From the IMG/VR virus record IMGVR_UViG_3300045988_103061, positions 1 to 5,487 of that record: 5,487 nt of DNA; one strand, written 5' to 3'. Shown here piece after piece: positions 201 through 5,487 of this stretch. The notes under the pieces are model-generated. The model made no database searches and had not been told where the DNA came from. It saw only the letters and a program-made list of their open reading frames with translations. Positions within the stretch are counted from its first letter, which is position 1, and each line of letters starts with the position of its first letter. This DNA comes from a virus. A program made the position numbers and the translations under genes.

Positions 201-482
201 TTACATTTTAGCAGTATCCGGGAGGGGTGTCAAGAGTTCCGTGGCAGTAGACAAAAGCAAAGTGGGGTTTTGTGGGGAAAACACGCACGTTTTGTCGTCA
301 AACTCTCCGAGATACATCAGAACAAAGTCCTCGTGATAGTCATGGATAATATTGGAACGCTCCGGAGTAGACGGCTGGTTAACCATAATCTGAAATTGGC
401 GGATAGCCATAGCATTATTTTGCTGGGTAAAGGGCGGGTTCATCAACTCGCCCTTGCGATCATAAATACAATAAAGTTTCAT
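201..482 (-). CDS. VP5-like small non-structural protein (93 aa), true start ATG at 482. Gokushovirus ORF5/VP5 family is suspected from its pattern; its function in that family is unknown but possibly ssDNA synthesis or packaging.
   Basis: ORF track 201..491 is trimmed to the ATG at 482. That ATG is preceded by TTTAAGGAGTGATTTTT on the minus strand, a strong extended SD that contains the upstream gene's TGA stop. The protein MKLYCIYDRKGELMNPPFTQQNNAMAIRQFQIMVNQPSTPERSNIIHDYHEDFVLMYLGEFDD... fits my recollection of the VP5 pattern (F.V.D.K...PFF...N...A.R.F...VNDP...HPEDF.L..GEFDD). This is recall, not a search result. Confidence 0.6.
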   Translation of the reverse strand: MKLYCIYDRKGELMNPPFTQQNNAMAIRQFQIMVNQPSTPERSNIIHDYHEDFVLMYLGEFDDKTCVFSPQNPTLLLSTATELLTPLPDTAKM

Positions 483-766: not shown

Positions 767-791
767 ATTGCTTACCTCACTTTCTATATAT

Positions 792-820
792 ATTATACCA
801 TGAGATAAAGCAACTGTCAA
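792..820 (-). promoter_or_regulatory. Consensus sigma70 promoter with extended -10: TTGACA - 17 nt - TG-G-TATAAT. It drives the ORF92/VP5-like operon.
   Basis: The minus strand reads gttgTTGACAgttgctttatctcaTGgTATAATatatatag. The -35 is the reverse complement of + 815-820 'tgtcaa', the -10 is the reverse complement of + 792-797 'attata', and the TG is at + 799-800. Both hexamers match consensus perfectly, with a 17-nt spacer and a TGn motif. The predicted TSS is near +785, giving an ~20-nt leader with the SD. Confidence 0.65.
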
Positions 821-850
821 CAACTTTTTACAACTTTTTACAACTTTTAT
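821..850. repeat. Three tandem 10-bp units (CAACTTTTTA on +, TAAAAAGTTG on the gene strand) directly upstream of and continuous with the -35 element. These are phased A5 tracts and could be UP-element-like or a DNA-bending array.
   Basis: + 821-830 caacttttta, 831-840 caacttttta, 841-850 caacttttat. A fourth degenerate unit at 811-820, caactgtcaa, carries the -35. The VP4 stop codon (849-847) lies in the first unit. Confidence 0.8.
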
Positions 851-1803
851 AAACCTAAATTATCAAAATCTCGCTCAAATTGTTCCTGCCGGTGCTTCAG
901 AATCTTCTCCTTGGCTTCCAGCCTTTTGGTATCAACAACAATGGCAGCCTTTGCGTTATCCTGTTTATTTTGCTTGTATATACTATACCAAACGGGATTG
1001 CTGCGCTCAAAAAGTGATTGATAATAACGAGGGATCTTATACTTAGCTCCATTAATTGTTACGAAACCGAGCTTAAAAATATCATCAGAATAACGACTGA
1101 AATAATCTGCTCCAATACCAGGCTTAAGGGAACTGCCGACAAACTCCGGAGAAATACCTAAAGCGTCATACATACAGGCATTTTTGCCGGTCTGCTTTTT
1201 GAGGGAGTATTTAGCAACATAACGGGCACTCTCAAAAGTAACAGCTCCTACAGTATTGTAGCCATACGGCCAAAGACGCTCCAACGTGGGAGAACGGAAA
1301 AGATTATAGCCAGCTGTCAACGCCGAGACTTTGCGGACATCGTCAGGAAACCAACCAAAGCACAAAATATGATAGTGTGGACGGCAATTGAGATCGCCAT
1401 ACTCACCGCAACATAAAAAGCGGATCTTAGAATTATCATGATAATCCAAATAACGGCGTAACCGCTTAAAGAATAACTGCAAGTGATCACGATGCAGCGA
1501 GTGATCAGCTGGTAAACAATCGTCATTGTAAGTAAGCGTTATAAAACAGTTATGCAAGTGCAGCTTAGCCTCATGCACGCAGCGTATAGCCCAGTCATTA
1601 GCTTTATCCAAACGGCAGCCTAAACACTGACCGCAGGGAACAACAACAGCATAATTATTAGCTAGCTCACTTTTAGCAATTTCAAGAGATTTGCCAGCAA
1701 GGTCACGATAAGAAACAAAATTAGATAGCTCATACTTACCATTAGCATTTGGAACAGCAGAGCGTTTAGCAAATAAAGGATGAAGGCAAGTCATAATACA
1801 CAC
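847..1803 (-). CDS. VP4: VP4 rolling-circle replication initiator protein (HUH endonuclease, phiX174 gpA-like), 318 aa.
   Basis: RCR motifs are visible in the translation: FITLTY (motif 1), HYHILCF (motif 2, HUH) and YVAKYSLKK (motif 3 with two Tyr spaced like phiX174 gpA YVAKYVNKK). An N-terminal CxxC...CGQCLGCR zinc-finger-like cluster is typical of gokushovirus VP4. An alternative ATG lies 3 codons in (1794). Confidence 0.95.
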   Translation of the reverse strand: MCIMTCLHPLFAKRSAVPNANGKYELSNFVSYRDLAGKSLEIAKSELANNYAVVVPCGQCLGCRLDKANDWAIRCVHEAKLHLHNCFITLTYNDDCLPADHSLHRDHLQLFFKRLRRYLDYHDNSKIRFLCCGEYGDLNCRPHYHILCFGWFPDDVRKVSALTAGYNLFRSPTLERLWPYGYNTVGAVTFESARYVAKYSLKKQTGKNACMYDALGISPEFVGSSLKPGIGADYFSRYSDDIFKLGFVTINGAKYKIPRYYQSLFERSNPVWYSIYKQNKQDNAKAAIVVDTKRLEAKEKILKHRQEQFERDFDNLGL

Positions 1804-2242: not shown

Positions 2243-3043
2243 TCATTTAGAAAAATAACTAGCAATGCTAGAAAACAAACGATTACCAGCACGAGCAAGA
2301 GTATTCCAAGGCAGTCCGTCGTCAGACAATCCAAGATTTTTGTAGTCAGAATTACGAGAAATTTTATAATCATAATCAGCTTTAGCAACACTAGAAAGCT
2401 GCGAATTATAAGCAGCAGTACTATTGGCAGCATTACCTTGAGCATACATCATAGCAGCTTGAGCAGGCATAACTACATTCATCATATACTCTTGGGCAAG
2501 TTTTTGAGAATCAATATATTCTCCTTGCTTTTTAGCATTTAAAAGATTCTGTTTAACCAAAGCCAAATTGTCATTGTAAGAATCAGCAGCTAACTTATTA
2601 GCCAAAGAAATACCATAAGATTCAGCATCGAATTTTTTAGCACTAGATCCAGCTAAAATAGTTTGAGCAGCTAAATTTTTTATTTGTTCGTCGCTCATTT
2701 TTTCAGCGATAGCAGCTTGACGATTAGCAGCTTTAGCAGAGTTACCAGCAGCAGTAGCAGACATACCGGCAGTCACACCTTCACCAATATTATAATTTGC
2801 GGATAAGGCAGAAGCTCCATTAATAGAACCGCCAATACCTTGAGTAGCAGCAAGCATAGGGTTTAATCCAGCTTTTTGCATATCTTCCATTGCCCATTGA
2901 TAACGATGCTGATAGTTATAAACATTACGCTGATTAGCTACAGTTGCAGCATGACGAGCAGCAGAGTTACTAAGAGCACCACTAATGATAGACGAAATAC
3001 CACCAGTAACAGCTCCAAGAGCAGATCCGAGAAAGGAACCCAT
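2243..3043 (-). CDS. VP2: VP2 minor capsid / DNA pilot protein, 266 aa.
   Basis: It has the Gly/Ala/Ser-rich N-terminus MGSFLGSALGAVTGGISSIISGALS followed by ...YQWAMEDMQKAGLNPMLAA, the typical gokushovirus VP2 signature. It is positioned immediately 3' of VP1 with a 12-nt gap. The SD TTTAAGGAGTGATTTAA precedes the ATG and contains the VP1 TAA stop. Confidence 0.85.
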   Translation of the reverse strand: MGSFLGSALGAVTGGISSIISGALSNSAARHAATVANQRNVYNYQHRYQWAMEDMQKAGLNPMLAATQGIGGSINGASALSANYNIGEGVTAGMSATAAGNSAKAANRQAAIAEKMSDEQIKNLAAQTILAGSSAKKFDAESYGISLANKLAADSYNDNLALVKQNLLNAKKQGEYIDSQKLAQEYMMNVVMPAQAAMMYAQGNAANSTAAYNSQLSSVAKADYDYKISRNSDYKNLGLSDDGLPWNTLARAGNRLFSSIASYFSK

Positions 3044-3055
3044 TTAAATCACTCC

Positions 3056-4684
3056 TTAAAAATGTCCCATCATGCCGGGAAGACCATACATAGGCATAGG
3101 ACGAATACATTTAAGGTTAAATTTAACATCGAGCAAGAAATGAGGATAAGACGGAACAGCGACAACACGGCTAATAGGCGGATGATCTTGAATAAATTCA
3201 TCCGAGAGAGTAGGCAGAGCAACAAATTTTTGAGAAAGATGCCAAATATCCAAAGGCTCTTTATAAGTTGAGCGGAATTGACCTGTGATCAAAGAAGGCT
3301 TATAGCGATATTCTGCATATCTCTCTTGATAGCCGAAAACTTTTTTATCGTCATCATTGCCTTGGCAATAAATTTCAATATTTTGTATAGACTGCTCGCC
3401 TAAATGAGCAAAAGAAGGCCAATAGAAATCAAGAACATCCGAACGCAGCCACATCTTATTGATTCCTTGCTGATAAGTAAGATCAGCACGGACATTGATT
3501 AAGCCGATAACATAACCAAATTCCGAGAAAGATTTTGTAAATGCATGATAACGCTGTGCATTTAATCCATATGCAGCCAAGTTACCTTGAGGAGTAGTAG
3601 AATCTGTAGAACTTGTTTGCGTAACCGGGTTAATATTCATCATAGAACTATGAGAACCGAGGAACTCCGGACGTTGCAAACGAGCATCGGGGTTAGTTAC
3701 ACCGAAATGAGCTTGAAGTTTTTCCGTATATCGAGTACCACCACGGGCATCAATCTCATAATATCTCTGGAGCATAAACGCTTGACGAAGAGAATTAATA
3801 GTAGCAGCAGAAGCATTAGTTAAATCAGCATACAAAGTAGAATTTCGGCTAGCATTATCACCAGCAGAATTACCAATCATAACTTGCCAATTATTAGCAG
3901 CATTAACCCAAAGAACTTTAGGATCGCCGTCAGGTGTCATTACATTGATACGATTACTACCAGCATAAGGCTCTGCAACAATAGGAGCACTACCACCTAA
4001 TGGAAGATCAACAGCAGGACCCTTTTGCGGCCAAGGAAGAGCACCTGTAAAATAATCATATCTCTTGCCACGAGGAGCAGGATCATACCAATTTTTTACA
4101 CCGGACGGCAAACCATAATTAAGATTAGCAGTAGATTGTCCCATAGGTTCAAGAACTGTGTTAGTTTCGCCTTTAGACACCTTAACAGATTTTTGTAGGT
4201 TCTCATCACGAAACCACTCGTTCCATATAGTCCAGTAGCAGCGGAACGGCAAGCAGTTAACGGAAACATTATTAAAAGTACCGGAAGCGCAAGCTATACC
4301 CATATAATCGGGCAGCTTATTAGTCATATCACCGGTAAGGGATACGGTAGGAACAAGATAATCTGTAGAATCTTCGGGATTTTCCTGCTCACCACAGAGA
4401 TTTACCCATTTATCATATACGAGCCTTGAAGGAACGAAGAAGAAAAAAGACTCAATATAGATGTTGTCCATGAAAGGAACAACAGGAGTAGCCAAACGGC
4501 AAAACTCCACAGGATTTAAAGTAAAAGTATCGCCTGGAATAACTTCATCCACGAAATAAGGAATCAGCTGGCCTTCGTTAAAAGTAGTTTTATAAACATG
4601 ACTTCTATCAAAGACAGAGCGACGAATATTAGCTTGTGGAATCATCGCAAAATGCGACTGATTAACACGGATATTTCGAGCCAT
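3056..4684 (-). CDS. VP1: VP1 major capsid protein (F-like jelly-roll), 542 aa.
   Basis: The N-terminus MARNIRVNQSHFAMIPQANIRRSVFDRSHVYKTTFNEGQLIPYFVDEVIPGDTFTL...LATPVVPFMDNIYIESFFFFVP carries the canonical Microviridae/gokushovirus MCP motifs (SHF, IRRS.FD.SH..KTTF, EV.PGDTF). Its size is typical for gokushovirus VP1. SD TTAAGGAGTTTTTATT precedes the ATG. Confidence 0.97.
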   Translation of the reverse strand: MARNIRVNQSHFAMIPQANIRRSVFDRSHVYKTTFNEGQLIPYFVDEVIPGDTFTLNPVEFCRLATPVVPFMDNIYIESFFFFVPSRLVYDKWVNLCGEQENPEDSTDYLVPTVSLTGDMTNKLPDYMGIACASGTFNNVSVNCLPFRCYWTIWNEWFRDENLQKSVKVSKGETNTVLEPMGQSTANLNYGLPSGVKNWYDPAPRGKRYDYFTGALPWPQKGPAVDLPLGGSAPIVAEPYAGSNRINVMTPDGDPKVLWVNAANNWQVMIGNSAGDNASRNSTLYADLTNASAATINSLRQAFMLQRYYEIDARGGTRYTEKLQAHFGVTNPDARLQRPEFLGSHSSMMNINPVTQTSSTDSTTPQGNLAAYGLNAQRYHAFTKSFSEFGYVIGLINVRADLTYQQGINKMWLRSDVLDFYWPSFAHLGEQSIQNIEIYCQGNDDDKKVFGYQERYAEYRYKPSLITGQFRSTYKEPLDIWHLSQKFVALPTLSDEFIQDHPPISRVVAVPSYPHFLLDVKFNLKCIRPMPMYGLPGMMGHF

Positions 4685-4805
4685 AATAAAAACTCCTTAA
4701 TTTTAATAAACGACCGAAAAGCACGAGAACGGCATTTTCGTTATCAAATCAGAAGGGAATTAAAAATAAATAAAAGGCTTATTTTTAAGGTTTTTTCTGA
4801 TTTTG

Positions 4806-4853
4806 TGTCACCTTGACCAGTTACTATCAAGTAGGTAACTGGTCAAGGTGACA
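4806..4853. repeat. Perfect 19-bp inverted repeat with a 10-nt loop (hairpin) in the VP3-VP1 intergenic region.
   Basis: + 4806-4824 tgtcaccttgaccagttac is the exact reverse complement of 4835-4853 gtaactggtcaaggtgaca, with loop tatcaagtag. An adjacent A/T-only 10-bp stem lies at 4760-4769/4779-4788, followed by T6 on the + strand. Confidence 0.9.
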
Positions 4854-5335: not shown

Positions 5336-5487
5336 AGCTTATTATCTCCTTTCTTTACCCGACAAGGCACGAATAACGATTTTTGTAAGCGTAGGCTTGC
5401 GCCGTGTTACAAAGATATGATATGAGCGGAGTGACCGGCAGCTTAGCACAGTCATACCGGCATAGCCGGTATATAAAAACAAAAAAG

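Follow-up and report, generated by a model that had tools for sequence, protein, structure and literature searches.

The window analysed here, the whole 5,487-nucleotide (nt) stretch of IMG/VR record IMGVR_UViG_3300045988_103061, is a complete circular genome of a gokushovirus (Microviridae), a single-stranded DNA (ssDNA) phage, and our subject is a promoter-like element with an upstream array of 10-bp repeats that lies between its Rep gene and a small gene that we call ORF92. A terminal overlap of 95 nt (1-95 = 5393-5487) gives a circular unit of 5392 nt, and all genes are on the minus strand. At the locus itself, Rep (VP4; 1803-847, matching PF23343 and phrog_942) ends in a TAA stop codon at 847-849, and the gap that follows (846-767, 80 nt) leads to the hypervariable accessory gene ORF92 (488-766, ATG at 766-764) and then to a VP5-like gene (201-482, PF20577), the first and second genes of the proposed transcription unit. 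An earlier inspection of the letters alone, referred to below as the sequence-only reading, had described this as the only sizeable gap. That description is correct within the Rep-to-VP5 block but not for the circle as a whole, where the VP5-VP3 (~257 nt) and VP3-VP1 (207 nt) intergenic regions are both bigger.

The core promoter occupies positions 820-792 of the minus strand, the strand that encodes every gene. Specifically, the -35 hexamer TTGACA (815-820) is separated from the -10 hexamer TATAAT (792-797) by a 17-nt spacer, GTTGCTTTATCTCATGG (798-814), giving a 12/12 match to the consensus hexamers of sigma-70/sigma-A promoters. The spacer includes an extended -10 TG at 800-799 (TGG at 800-798), a TGn feature common in Firmicutes promoters. 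Standard promoter geometry predicts a transcription start at 784-785, 7-8 nt past the -10 hexamer, and the predicted 5′ untranslated region (5′UTR), GAAAGTGAGGT (774-784), holds a Shine-Dalgarno GAGG at 778-775. On the coding strand, the end of the -10 hexamer is 25 nt from the ORF92 ATG, and GAGG is 8 nt from it. When the window was simulated 20,000 times under a first-order Markov model, 0.66% of the simulated sequences had a 12/12 site with a spacer length of 16-18 nt and 0.03% had one that also carried the TG, so that the contention that a fully consensus, TG-extended promoter is present here and rare by chance is well founded. A simple promoter scan of the same window returned 18 promoter-like sites against 14.3 expected.

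Directly upstream, three 10-bp units on the minus strand run into the -35 hexamer. Unit 1, ATAAAAGTTG (841-850), overlaps the Rep stop codon and carries an A4 tract at about -63 to -60; unit 2, TAAAAAGTTG (831-840), places an A5 tract at -54 to -50, the distal UP (upstream promoter) subsite position; and unit 3, again TAAAAAGTTG (821-830), abuts the -35 with an A5 tract at -44 to -40, the proximal UP subsite position. The first six nucleotides of a degenerate fourth unit, TTGACAGTTG (820-811), are the -35 hexamer itself. Over 820-848, Tandem Repeats Finder detects 2.9 copies of a repeat with a period of 10 and 100% matches. The phased array that had been proposed is therefore present, but only two of its three units are exactly TAAAAAGTTG, the first being the A4 variant rather than a third A5 unit. 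The motif AAAAGTTG occurs three times in the window against 0.45 expected, every copy lying inside the array, and there are two runs of at least three phased A/T-tracts, each intergenic, where 0.066 would be expected.

With respect to the placement of these A-tracts, published binding sites for the C-terminal domain of the RNA polymerase alpha subunit (alpha-CTD) centre at -43, -53 and -63 on one helical face (PMC3326320), and the proximal A-tract of the Escherichia coli consensus lies at -44 to -41 (PMC5664571). The A-tracts of the array centre at -42, -52 and -62, again with a 10-bp period. Against the E. coli consensus (-59 NNAAAWWTWTTTTNNAAAANNN -38), the proximal AAAA (-44 to -41) matches, whereas the distal part lacks the T-tract (A5GTTG); the host is not E. 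coli. Because the A-tract positions match the published alpha-CTD positions, we read the array as an extended UP-like element.

Conservation among relatives was assessed with ~25 distinct genomes drawn from IMG/VR, ENA, Logan assemblies and one metagenome-assembled genome (MAG) bin, with Rep proteins 85-96% identical in amino acid sequence to that of the window. Close DNA relatives among GenBank phages were limited to short patches (77-97%), and an exact look-up of the Rep protein matched no record. In these related gokushoviruses TATAAT and the 17-nt length of the spacer do not vary, so that the -10 hexamer is invariant in all promoter-bearing relatives, while the sequence of the spacer drifts. 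TTGACA is found in 19 of 23 distinct regions (the others have TTGACT, TCGACA or TTTACT), and the -35 unit is wholly absent in one genome; TG is retained in all relatives except one (L061), and the 5′UTR GAAAGTGAGGT is near-invariant, with one substitution in 16 genomes. In a 15-genome alignment, mean pairwise identity is 0.86 for the repeats and 0.79 for the core promoter (-35 to -10), compared with 0.41 for the body of ORF92 and 0.60-0.65 at third codon positions. Only three coding-strand promoter-like sites are kept in at least 13 of the 15 genomes, namely those at ~820 (15/15), ~186 (15/15) and ~233 (13/15). Constrained hexamers and spacing with a free spacer are the classical comparative signature of a promoter, and the claim that this is a real one gains accordingly. 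In the comparison with related gokushoviruses that had been suggested as a check, unit 1 is present in every promoter-bearing relative.

These relatives carry 2, 3 or 4 A-tract units; the array changes only by exact 10-nt steps and is in every case adjacent to the -35. In the Rep distance tree, genomes with different copy numbers are interspersed, consistent with recurrent gain and loss of units. One genotype (L053 and L112) has lost exactly the TTGACAGTTG unit, leaving only the extended -10; the loss of precisely this 10-nt unit supports the -35 as a diverged repeat unit, as the sequence-only reading had supposed. No equivalent promoter was found in the Phascolarctobacterium faecium prophage L071, whose VP1 is 53% identical and whose Rep runs directly into overlapping open reading frames (ORFs). 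The same prophage does contain a perfect TTGACA-17-TGATATAAT site (L071 5690-5810; 12/12 with TG) on the strand opposite the structural genes, where it drives a 226-amino-acid ORF that may have a lysogeny function.

A host for the clade was identified through two type I-C arrays of clustered regularly interspaced short palindromic repeats (CRISPR), which surfaced in a scan for the Rep 3′ end. These are carried by human-gut contigs L114 (ORTV01000649.1; 61 repeats) and L111 (OOCG01002135.1; 42 repeats), of which ~20 and ~14 spacers, respectively, match this phage clade; one spacer spans the Rep stop codon together with repeat unit 1 (protospacer at window positions 839-873). The Cas8c encoded beside the arrays is 98% identical to that of Phascolarctobacterium succinatutens, a member of the class Negativicutes in the phylum Bacillota. 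The clade-matching spacers and the Cas8c identity together point to Phascolarctobacterium, a gut Negativicute, as the phage host, in line with the expectation of a host with sigma-A promoters rather than those of the Bacteroidetes type. The nearest integrated relative (VP1 53% identical) is that of P. faecium DSM 14760, and others are found in Clostridia MAGs. An initiation block with a strong AAGGAG ribosome-binding site, TTAAGGAG-N-ATG, precedes VP5, VP2 and VP1 on the minus strand (480-504, 3041-3065 and 4682-4706; repeat family D5), a pattern consistent with a host that uses Shine-Dalgarno initiation.

The gene behind the promoter is one of 84 members of a hypothetical-protein family that is nearly confined to contigs of 5.2-5.6 kb from this clade. 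The N-terminus of the ORF92 family is fixed (MLKDY or MYKDY in all members), and past it members share 17-25% amino acid identity even where Rep is ~90% identical, with C-terminal extensions that are mosaic between members. The AlphaFold model of ORF92 has a pLDDT (predicted local distance difference test score) of 92.8, but a structure search with this model against the PDB and BFVD gave no match at E ≤ 0.001, and there was no match to ORF92 in Pfam or PHROGs. A homologue, P0069, is encoded at 10001-10225 of an unrelated 84-kb phage contig (L096), within an array of small early-like genes, and follows an A-run, TTGACA-17-TGTTATAAT and a 5′UTR, GAAAGAGAGGTAAACAACATG, homologous to that of the window. 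Moreover, a lineage represented in two independent datasets (L005, IMG/VR 3300045988_121362; L106, OLSQ01013829.1) lacks array and promoter along with most of ORF92, the deletion junction falling at a 9-nt microhomology, AAAGTTGTT, that occurs both at the array/-35 boundary and within the ORF; VP5, the downstream promoters and the other genes are kept. Taken together, these observations describe a moron-like cassette: a non-essential gene with its own promoter, set between conserved genes, variably present and horizontally shared. A terminator of its own right after ORF92 is lacking, with VP5 starting within a few nucleotides, so the transcript should continue through VP5 to a terminator-like hairpin at 93-121 on the minus strand. 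This hairpin, which is followed by T6GT5, shows compensatory base-pair changes among relatives and is the probable 3′ end of the unit, a finding that strengthens the earlier suggestion that ORF92 and VP5 are transcribed together. ORF92 may be an arms-race gene, and its predicted independent expression, rapid evolution and presence in a large double-stranded DNA (dsDNA) phage make a role in host interaction or anti-defence plausible.

The upstream motif itself is shared with promoters of other phages and bacteria. The early promoters of the Bacillus phage SPO1 are recognised by the host sigma-A polymerase, and PE5 among these is the source of the laboratory promoter Pspac. In the annotated SPO1 early promoters (AF031901.1), PE5 reads gcAAAAAGTTG directly followed by TTGACT and PE7 gtAAAAAGTTG directly followed by TTGACA, and PE1, 2, 4, 6, 9, 10 and 12 carry AAAAAG(T/G)(G/T/A)(C/G/A) at the same place. 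The Clostridioides difficile rrnC promoter, which is transcribed in vitro by purified sigma-A holoenzyme, has ATAAAAGTTAAAAAGTTG abutting TTGACT-17-TATTAT (bioRxiv 10.1101/2022.01.17.476619). In the L096 contig, 9 perfect and 12 near-perfect promoters lie within 20 kb on one strand, with an upstream consensus of an A-tract at -45 to -40 followed by GTG or GTTG, and one of these has a three-unit phased array, GAAAAAAGTC-GAAAAAAGTT-AAAAAAAGTTG, directly before TTGACA. Given its occurrence in SPO1, C. difficile rrnC and L096, AAAAAGTTG is best regarded as the proximal element upstream of strong promoters of the Firmicutes type, here repeated in tandem. The view that the repeats are UP-element-like draws support from this shared AAAAAGTTG-TTGAC junction as well as from the alpha-CTD positions of the A-tracts, and the conserved GTTG, judged from these parallels, does not point to a phage-specific binding protein.

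Several further observations concern the contigs in which the motif recurs. Positions 1-20225 of L096 (Logan SRR8316613_4425) resemble the early-gene region of a large dsDNA phage, with ~45 small ORFs and many terminators, and its promoter with the three-unit A-tract array, at 15901, leads into a G+C-rich, structured and apparently non-coding stretch. With regard to the host of L096, megablast gave no match, and its metallophosphatase had only distant matches, in human-faecal phage contigs and actinophages. A 10-mer core identical to that of the array (NNAAAAGTTG, at least three tandem copies) is present in unrelated large-phage and giant-virus-labelled contigs (L052, L054, L055-L058 and L062-L069); in L054 the array itself provides a TTGCAA -35, 17 nt before TGCTATAAT. 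The 17-mer matches to AAAGTTGTTGACAGTTG in large viral contigs were mostly coincidental matches in coding sequence, and a few (L030, L031 and L036) were promoter-like.

Overall, we consider it quite likely that the 820-792 element is a host sigma-A (sigma-70 family) promoter with a tandemly repeated proximal UP-like element. In the mechanism that we propose, host sigma-A polymerase would use the promoter on the double-stranded replicative form, and the units would amount to the proximal upstream element (AAAAAGTTG, next to the -35) repeated in tandem. As the repeat period equals one helical turn, the narrowed minor grooves of the A-tracts (~-42, -52 and -62) share one face of the DNA, at which the two alpha-CTDs of RNA polymerase could dock. 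In this way the array would enhance recruitment of the polymerase as an extended UP element, perhaps helped by modest intrinsic bending. RNA synthesis would begin near 785/784, proceed through ORF92 and VP5, and end for the most part at the 121-93 hairpin. Replication slippage would add or remove whole units (2-4 copies) without changing helical phase, and the promoter, 5′UTR and ORF92 would travel as a dispensable, horizontally shared, moron-like accessory cassette. That the promoter is strong and acts early, as the sequence-only reading had proposed, is likewise a prediction.

Certain points weigh against this assignment or limit its reach. Curvature was calculated with a wedge-model script (parameters of the Bolshoy/Trifonov model), and the predicted bend of 42-48 degrees over 30-40 bp corresponds to the 96th percentile of the genome, with at least eight sites more curved; when these 40 nt were shuffled, 14.6% of the permutations equalled the curvature of the array, so that its excess is not significant. 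The intrinsic bending expected of the array thus looks modest rather than strong, and curvature was rejected as the main explanation. The rules for alpha-CTD positioning derive from E. coli and may not be those of the Phascolarctobacterium polymerase. The relatives are close (Rep 85-96% identical), so that some of the conservation reflects short divergence time, and the uniformity of the units could come partly from slippage-driven homogenisation rather than from selection on each unit, which would inflate their apparent conservation. The persistence of the L005/L106 lineage without array, promoter or ORF indicates that the element is not essential. In terms of strength, output of the consensus promoter J23119 fell by 97% once it was given a proximal half-UP element (PMC5664571), and a fully consensus core with an upstream A-tract can slow promoter escape; as the J23119 case illustrates, consensus need not mean strongest, since escape may be limiting.

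Beyond recruitment, the array might serve as a phase-preserving, slippage-prone expression dial, in which gain or loss of whole turns (2, 3 or 4 units, or the -35 unit itself) tunes a hypervariable, horizontally exchanged gene in an arms race with a Phascolarctobacterium host armed with dozens of CRISPR spacers against the phage. The scatter of copy numbers over the Rep tree is consistent with the repeated independent changes that this would entail, but we hold the proposal to be rather doubtful. If this were so, an ssDNA phage with a genome of 5.4 kb would possess a contingency locus.

Of the explanations that compete with a sigma-A promoter carrying UP-like repeats, the one that fares best treats the array as operator or activator sites, at which a host or phage factor recognising the AAAAGTTG direct repeats switches the promoter. 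GTTG is kept in nearly every unit and recurs after the -35 (in TTGACAGTTG), A-tract bending alone does not need it, and several viral contigs with no relation to this clade carry arrays of the same 10-mer. Nonetheless, single copies of the motif occur in the classical SPO1 early promoters and in the C. difficile rrnC promoter, and because related promoters of this kind work with holoenzyme alone, a sequence-specific regulator is not needed. The phage encodes no candidate regulator: VP5 is DNA-binding by PHROG annotation only, and the predicted ORF92 structure has no recognisable DNA-binding fold. We therefore regard switching by a dedicated factor as unlikely.

The sequence-only reading had itself raised the alternative of an iteron array, in which the 10-bp units would be binding sites for Rep (or VP5) that mark an origin or packaging signal and the promoter would be incidental. 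In its favour, the units are direct repeats located immediately 3′ of rep with a conserved GTTG core beside the A-tract. To our knowledge gokushovirus origins have not been mapped, and regulatory sites of these phages are not covered in those parts of the literature that were examined. The lineage that lacks the whole array (L005 and L106, from two independent datasets) nonetheless has its other genes intact, and the same motif sits at the same -35 position in SPO1, C. difficile rrnC and the large phage, none of which encodes this Rep, so that the motif is better described as generic to promoters. Furthermore, the array always keeps exact 10-bp register with the -35 despite a copy number of 2-4, no phiX174-like origin core was found in the window with 3 mismatches allowed, and a better origin candidate exists in a 19-bp hairpin at 4806-4853, the most conserved non-coding element. 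An origin role for the repeats is for these reasons very improbable. Least tenable of all is a compositional artefact, in which an AT-rich gap merely resembles a promoter and transcripts begun upstream supply ORF92 and VP5: weak matches are indeed common in the scan described above and the promoter-less lineage must express VP5 in another way, but a 12/12 site with TG is almost never simulated, the hexamers and spacer length are kept in ~25 genomes in which third codon positions have ~0.6 pairwise identity, a homologous promoter and 5′UTR cassette is found in an unrelated large phage, and the conservation of the promoter across relatives excludes a chance match.

The remainder of the window encodes the VP3 scaffold (5335-4892), VP1 capsid (4684-3056) and VP2 pilot (3043-2243) proteins and ORF89 (2231-1962), all on the minus strand, and contains other elements of note. 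In the VP5-VP3 region (62-200), a second conserved promoter, TTGCCT-17-TGGTATAAT, is located at 186-158 on the minus strand in 15 of 15 genomes and is flanked by a conserved inverted repeat (CTTGCC/GGCAAG). Three hairpins follow ~30-60 nt downstream of it, at 139-123, 121-93 (terminator-like, with a T-run) and 80-62, and in the hairpins of this region eight base pairs show compensatory double changes, such as ACCGG/CCGGT to TTTGG/CCAAA. Together with the terminator, this promoter would yield an RNA of ~60-65 nt, which could be a small RNA or an attenuator leader for the late genes; the hairpins could alternatively be ssDNA structures. These hairpins matched no Rfam family, and Rfam gave nothing beyond sub-threshold noise for the window. 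A third promoter-like site, TTGACA-17-TGCTAAAAT (205-233, minus strand), lies inside the 3′ end of the VP5 coding sequence and overlaps its stop codon. Its spacer consists of a poly-C/proline tract that differs in length in some relatives; 17-nt spacing is kept in 13 of 15 genomes, and the conservation of the site could derive from coding constraint. Between VP3 and VP1, the perfect 19-bp hairpin at 4806-4853 includes the most conserved 30-nt stretch of the genome (identity 0.95). It has no T-run after it on the sense strand, adjoins the only other phased A-tract run of the window (4804-4782), and may be an origin or a signal that primes the complementary strand.

The gokushoviruses rank among the most common ssDNA phages of the human gut, and the present analysis supplies a testable transcription map for one clade, consisting of the promoter at 820-792 (P1), the second promoter at 186-158 and the terminator at 121-93. 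It also ties this clade to the host genus Phascolarctobacterium and to a promoter grammar shared with SPO1-type early promoters and clostridial rRNA promoters. The general understanding of promoter function is unchanged by these findings.

In comparison with known systems, the element is of an established kind, namely an SPO1-type or rrn-type sigma-A promoter with UP-like A-tracts. Promoters PE1-PE12 of the SPO1 host-takeover module are among its closest parallels, with a AAAAAGTTG-TTGAC(A/T) junction that is identical in PE5 and PE7, a TG-extended -10, a 17-nt spacer, and small early accessory genes of unknown function with one promoter each. Unlike the window, SPO1 uses a single proximal motif and a separate AAAATTTT block rather than a tandem 10-bp array, and its -10 hexamers are less consensus (CATAAT, TAATAAT); SPO1 is moreover a 132-kb dsDNA Bacillus myovirus, whereas the window belongs to an ssDNA phage of 5.4 kb with a Negativicute host. 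The C. difficile rrnC promoter is alike in having two phased AAAAGTT units that abut the -35 and in its activity with purified sigma-A holoenzyme, but it is a chromosomal rRNA promoter with units 9-10 nt apart and a non-consensus -10. With the upstream A-tracts of E. coli (rrnB P1; Estrem et al.) the array shares a proximal site at -44 to -41 and distal sites at ~-53 and ~-63 on the same helical face. The distal E. coli subsite is an A-then-T tract, in contrast to A5 followed by GTTG in the window, where the repeats are exact and the alpha-CTD role would hold by analogy, the host polymerase not being that of E. coli.

Among microviruses, promoters PA, PB and PD of phiX174 are similarly read by a host sigma-70-family polymerase from one strand of the replicative form, with few promoters and probably read-through terminators. 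The two phages differ in subfamily, gene order and promoter positions, and no A-tract array has been described in phiX174. Gokushovirus promoters are not known to have been mapped, and no data on them were found in a limited check of papers naming both gokushovirus and promoter. The T-tract rheostat of Helicobacter pylori sabA (PMC4081817) resembles the array as a slippage-prone repeat beside the -35 whose length varies among isolates. The unit in the window is a whole helical turn, so that rotational phase is preserved and not shifted, and an effect on expression is here a proposal built on that analogy.

As a concept from lambdoid phages, morons are autonomous promoter-gene(-terminator) cassettes inserted between conserved phage genes. 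The cassette described here conforms to this in its own promoter and non-essential gene between Rep and VP5, its presence/absence polymorphism (L005 and L106) and its homologue in L096, but departs from it in lacking its own terminator, in sending its transcript into the core gene VP5, and in being carried by an ssDNA microvirus. Relative to all of these systems, the modestly novel aspects are the tandem units of a whole helical turn, their copy-number polymorphism, the hypervariable mobile accessory gene that they would drive, and their setting in a gokushovirus of Phascolarctobacterium.

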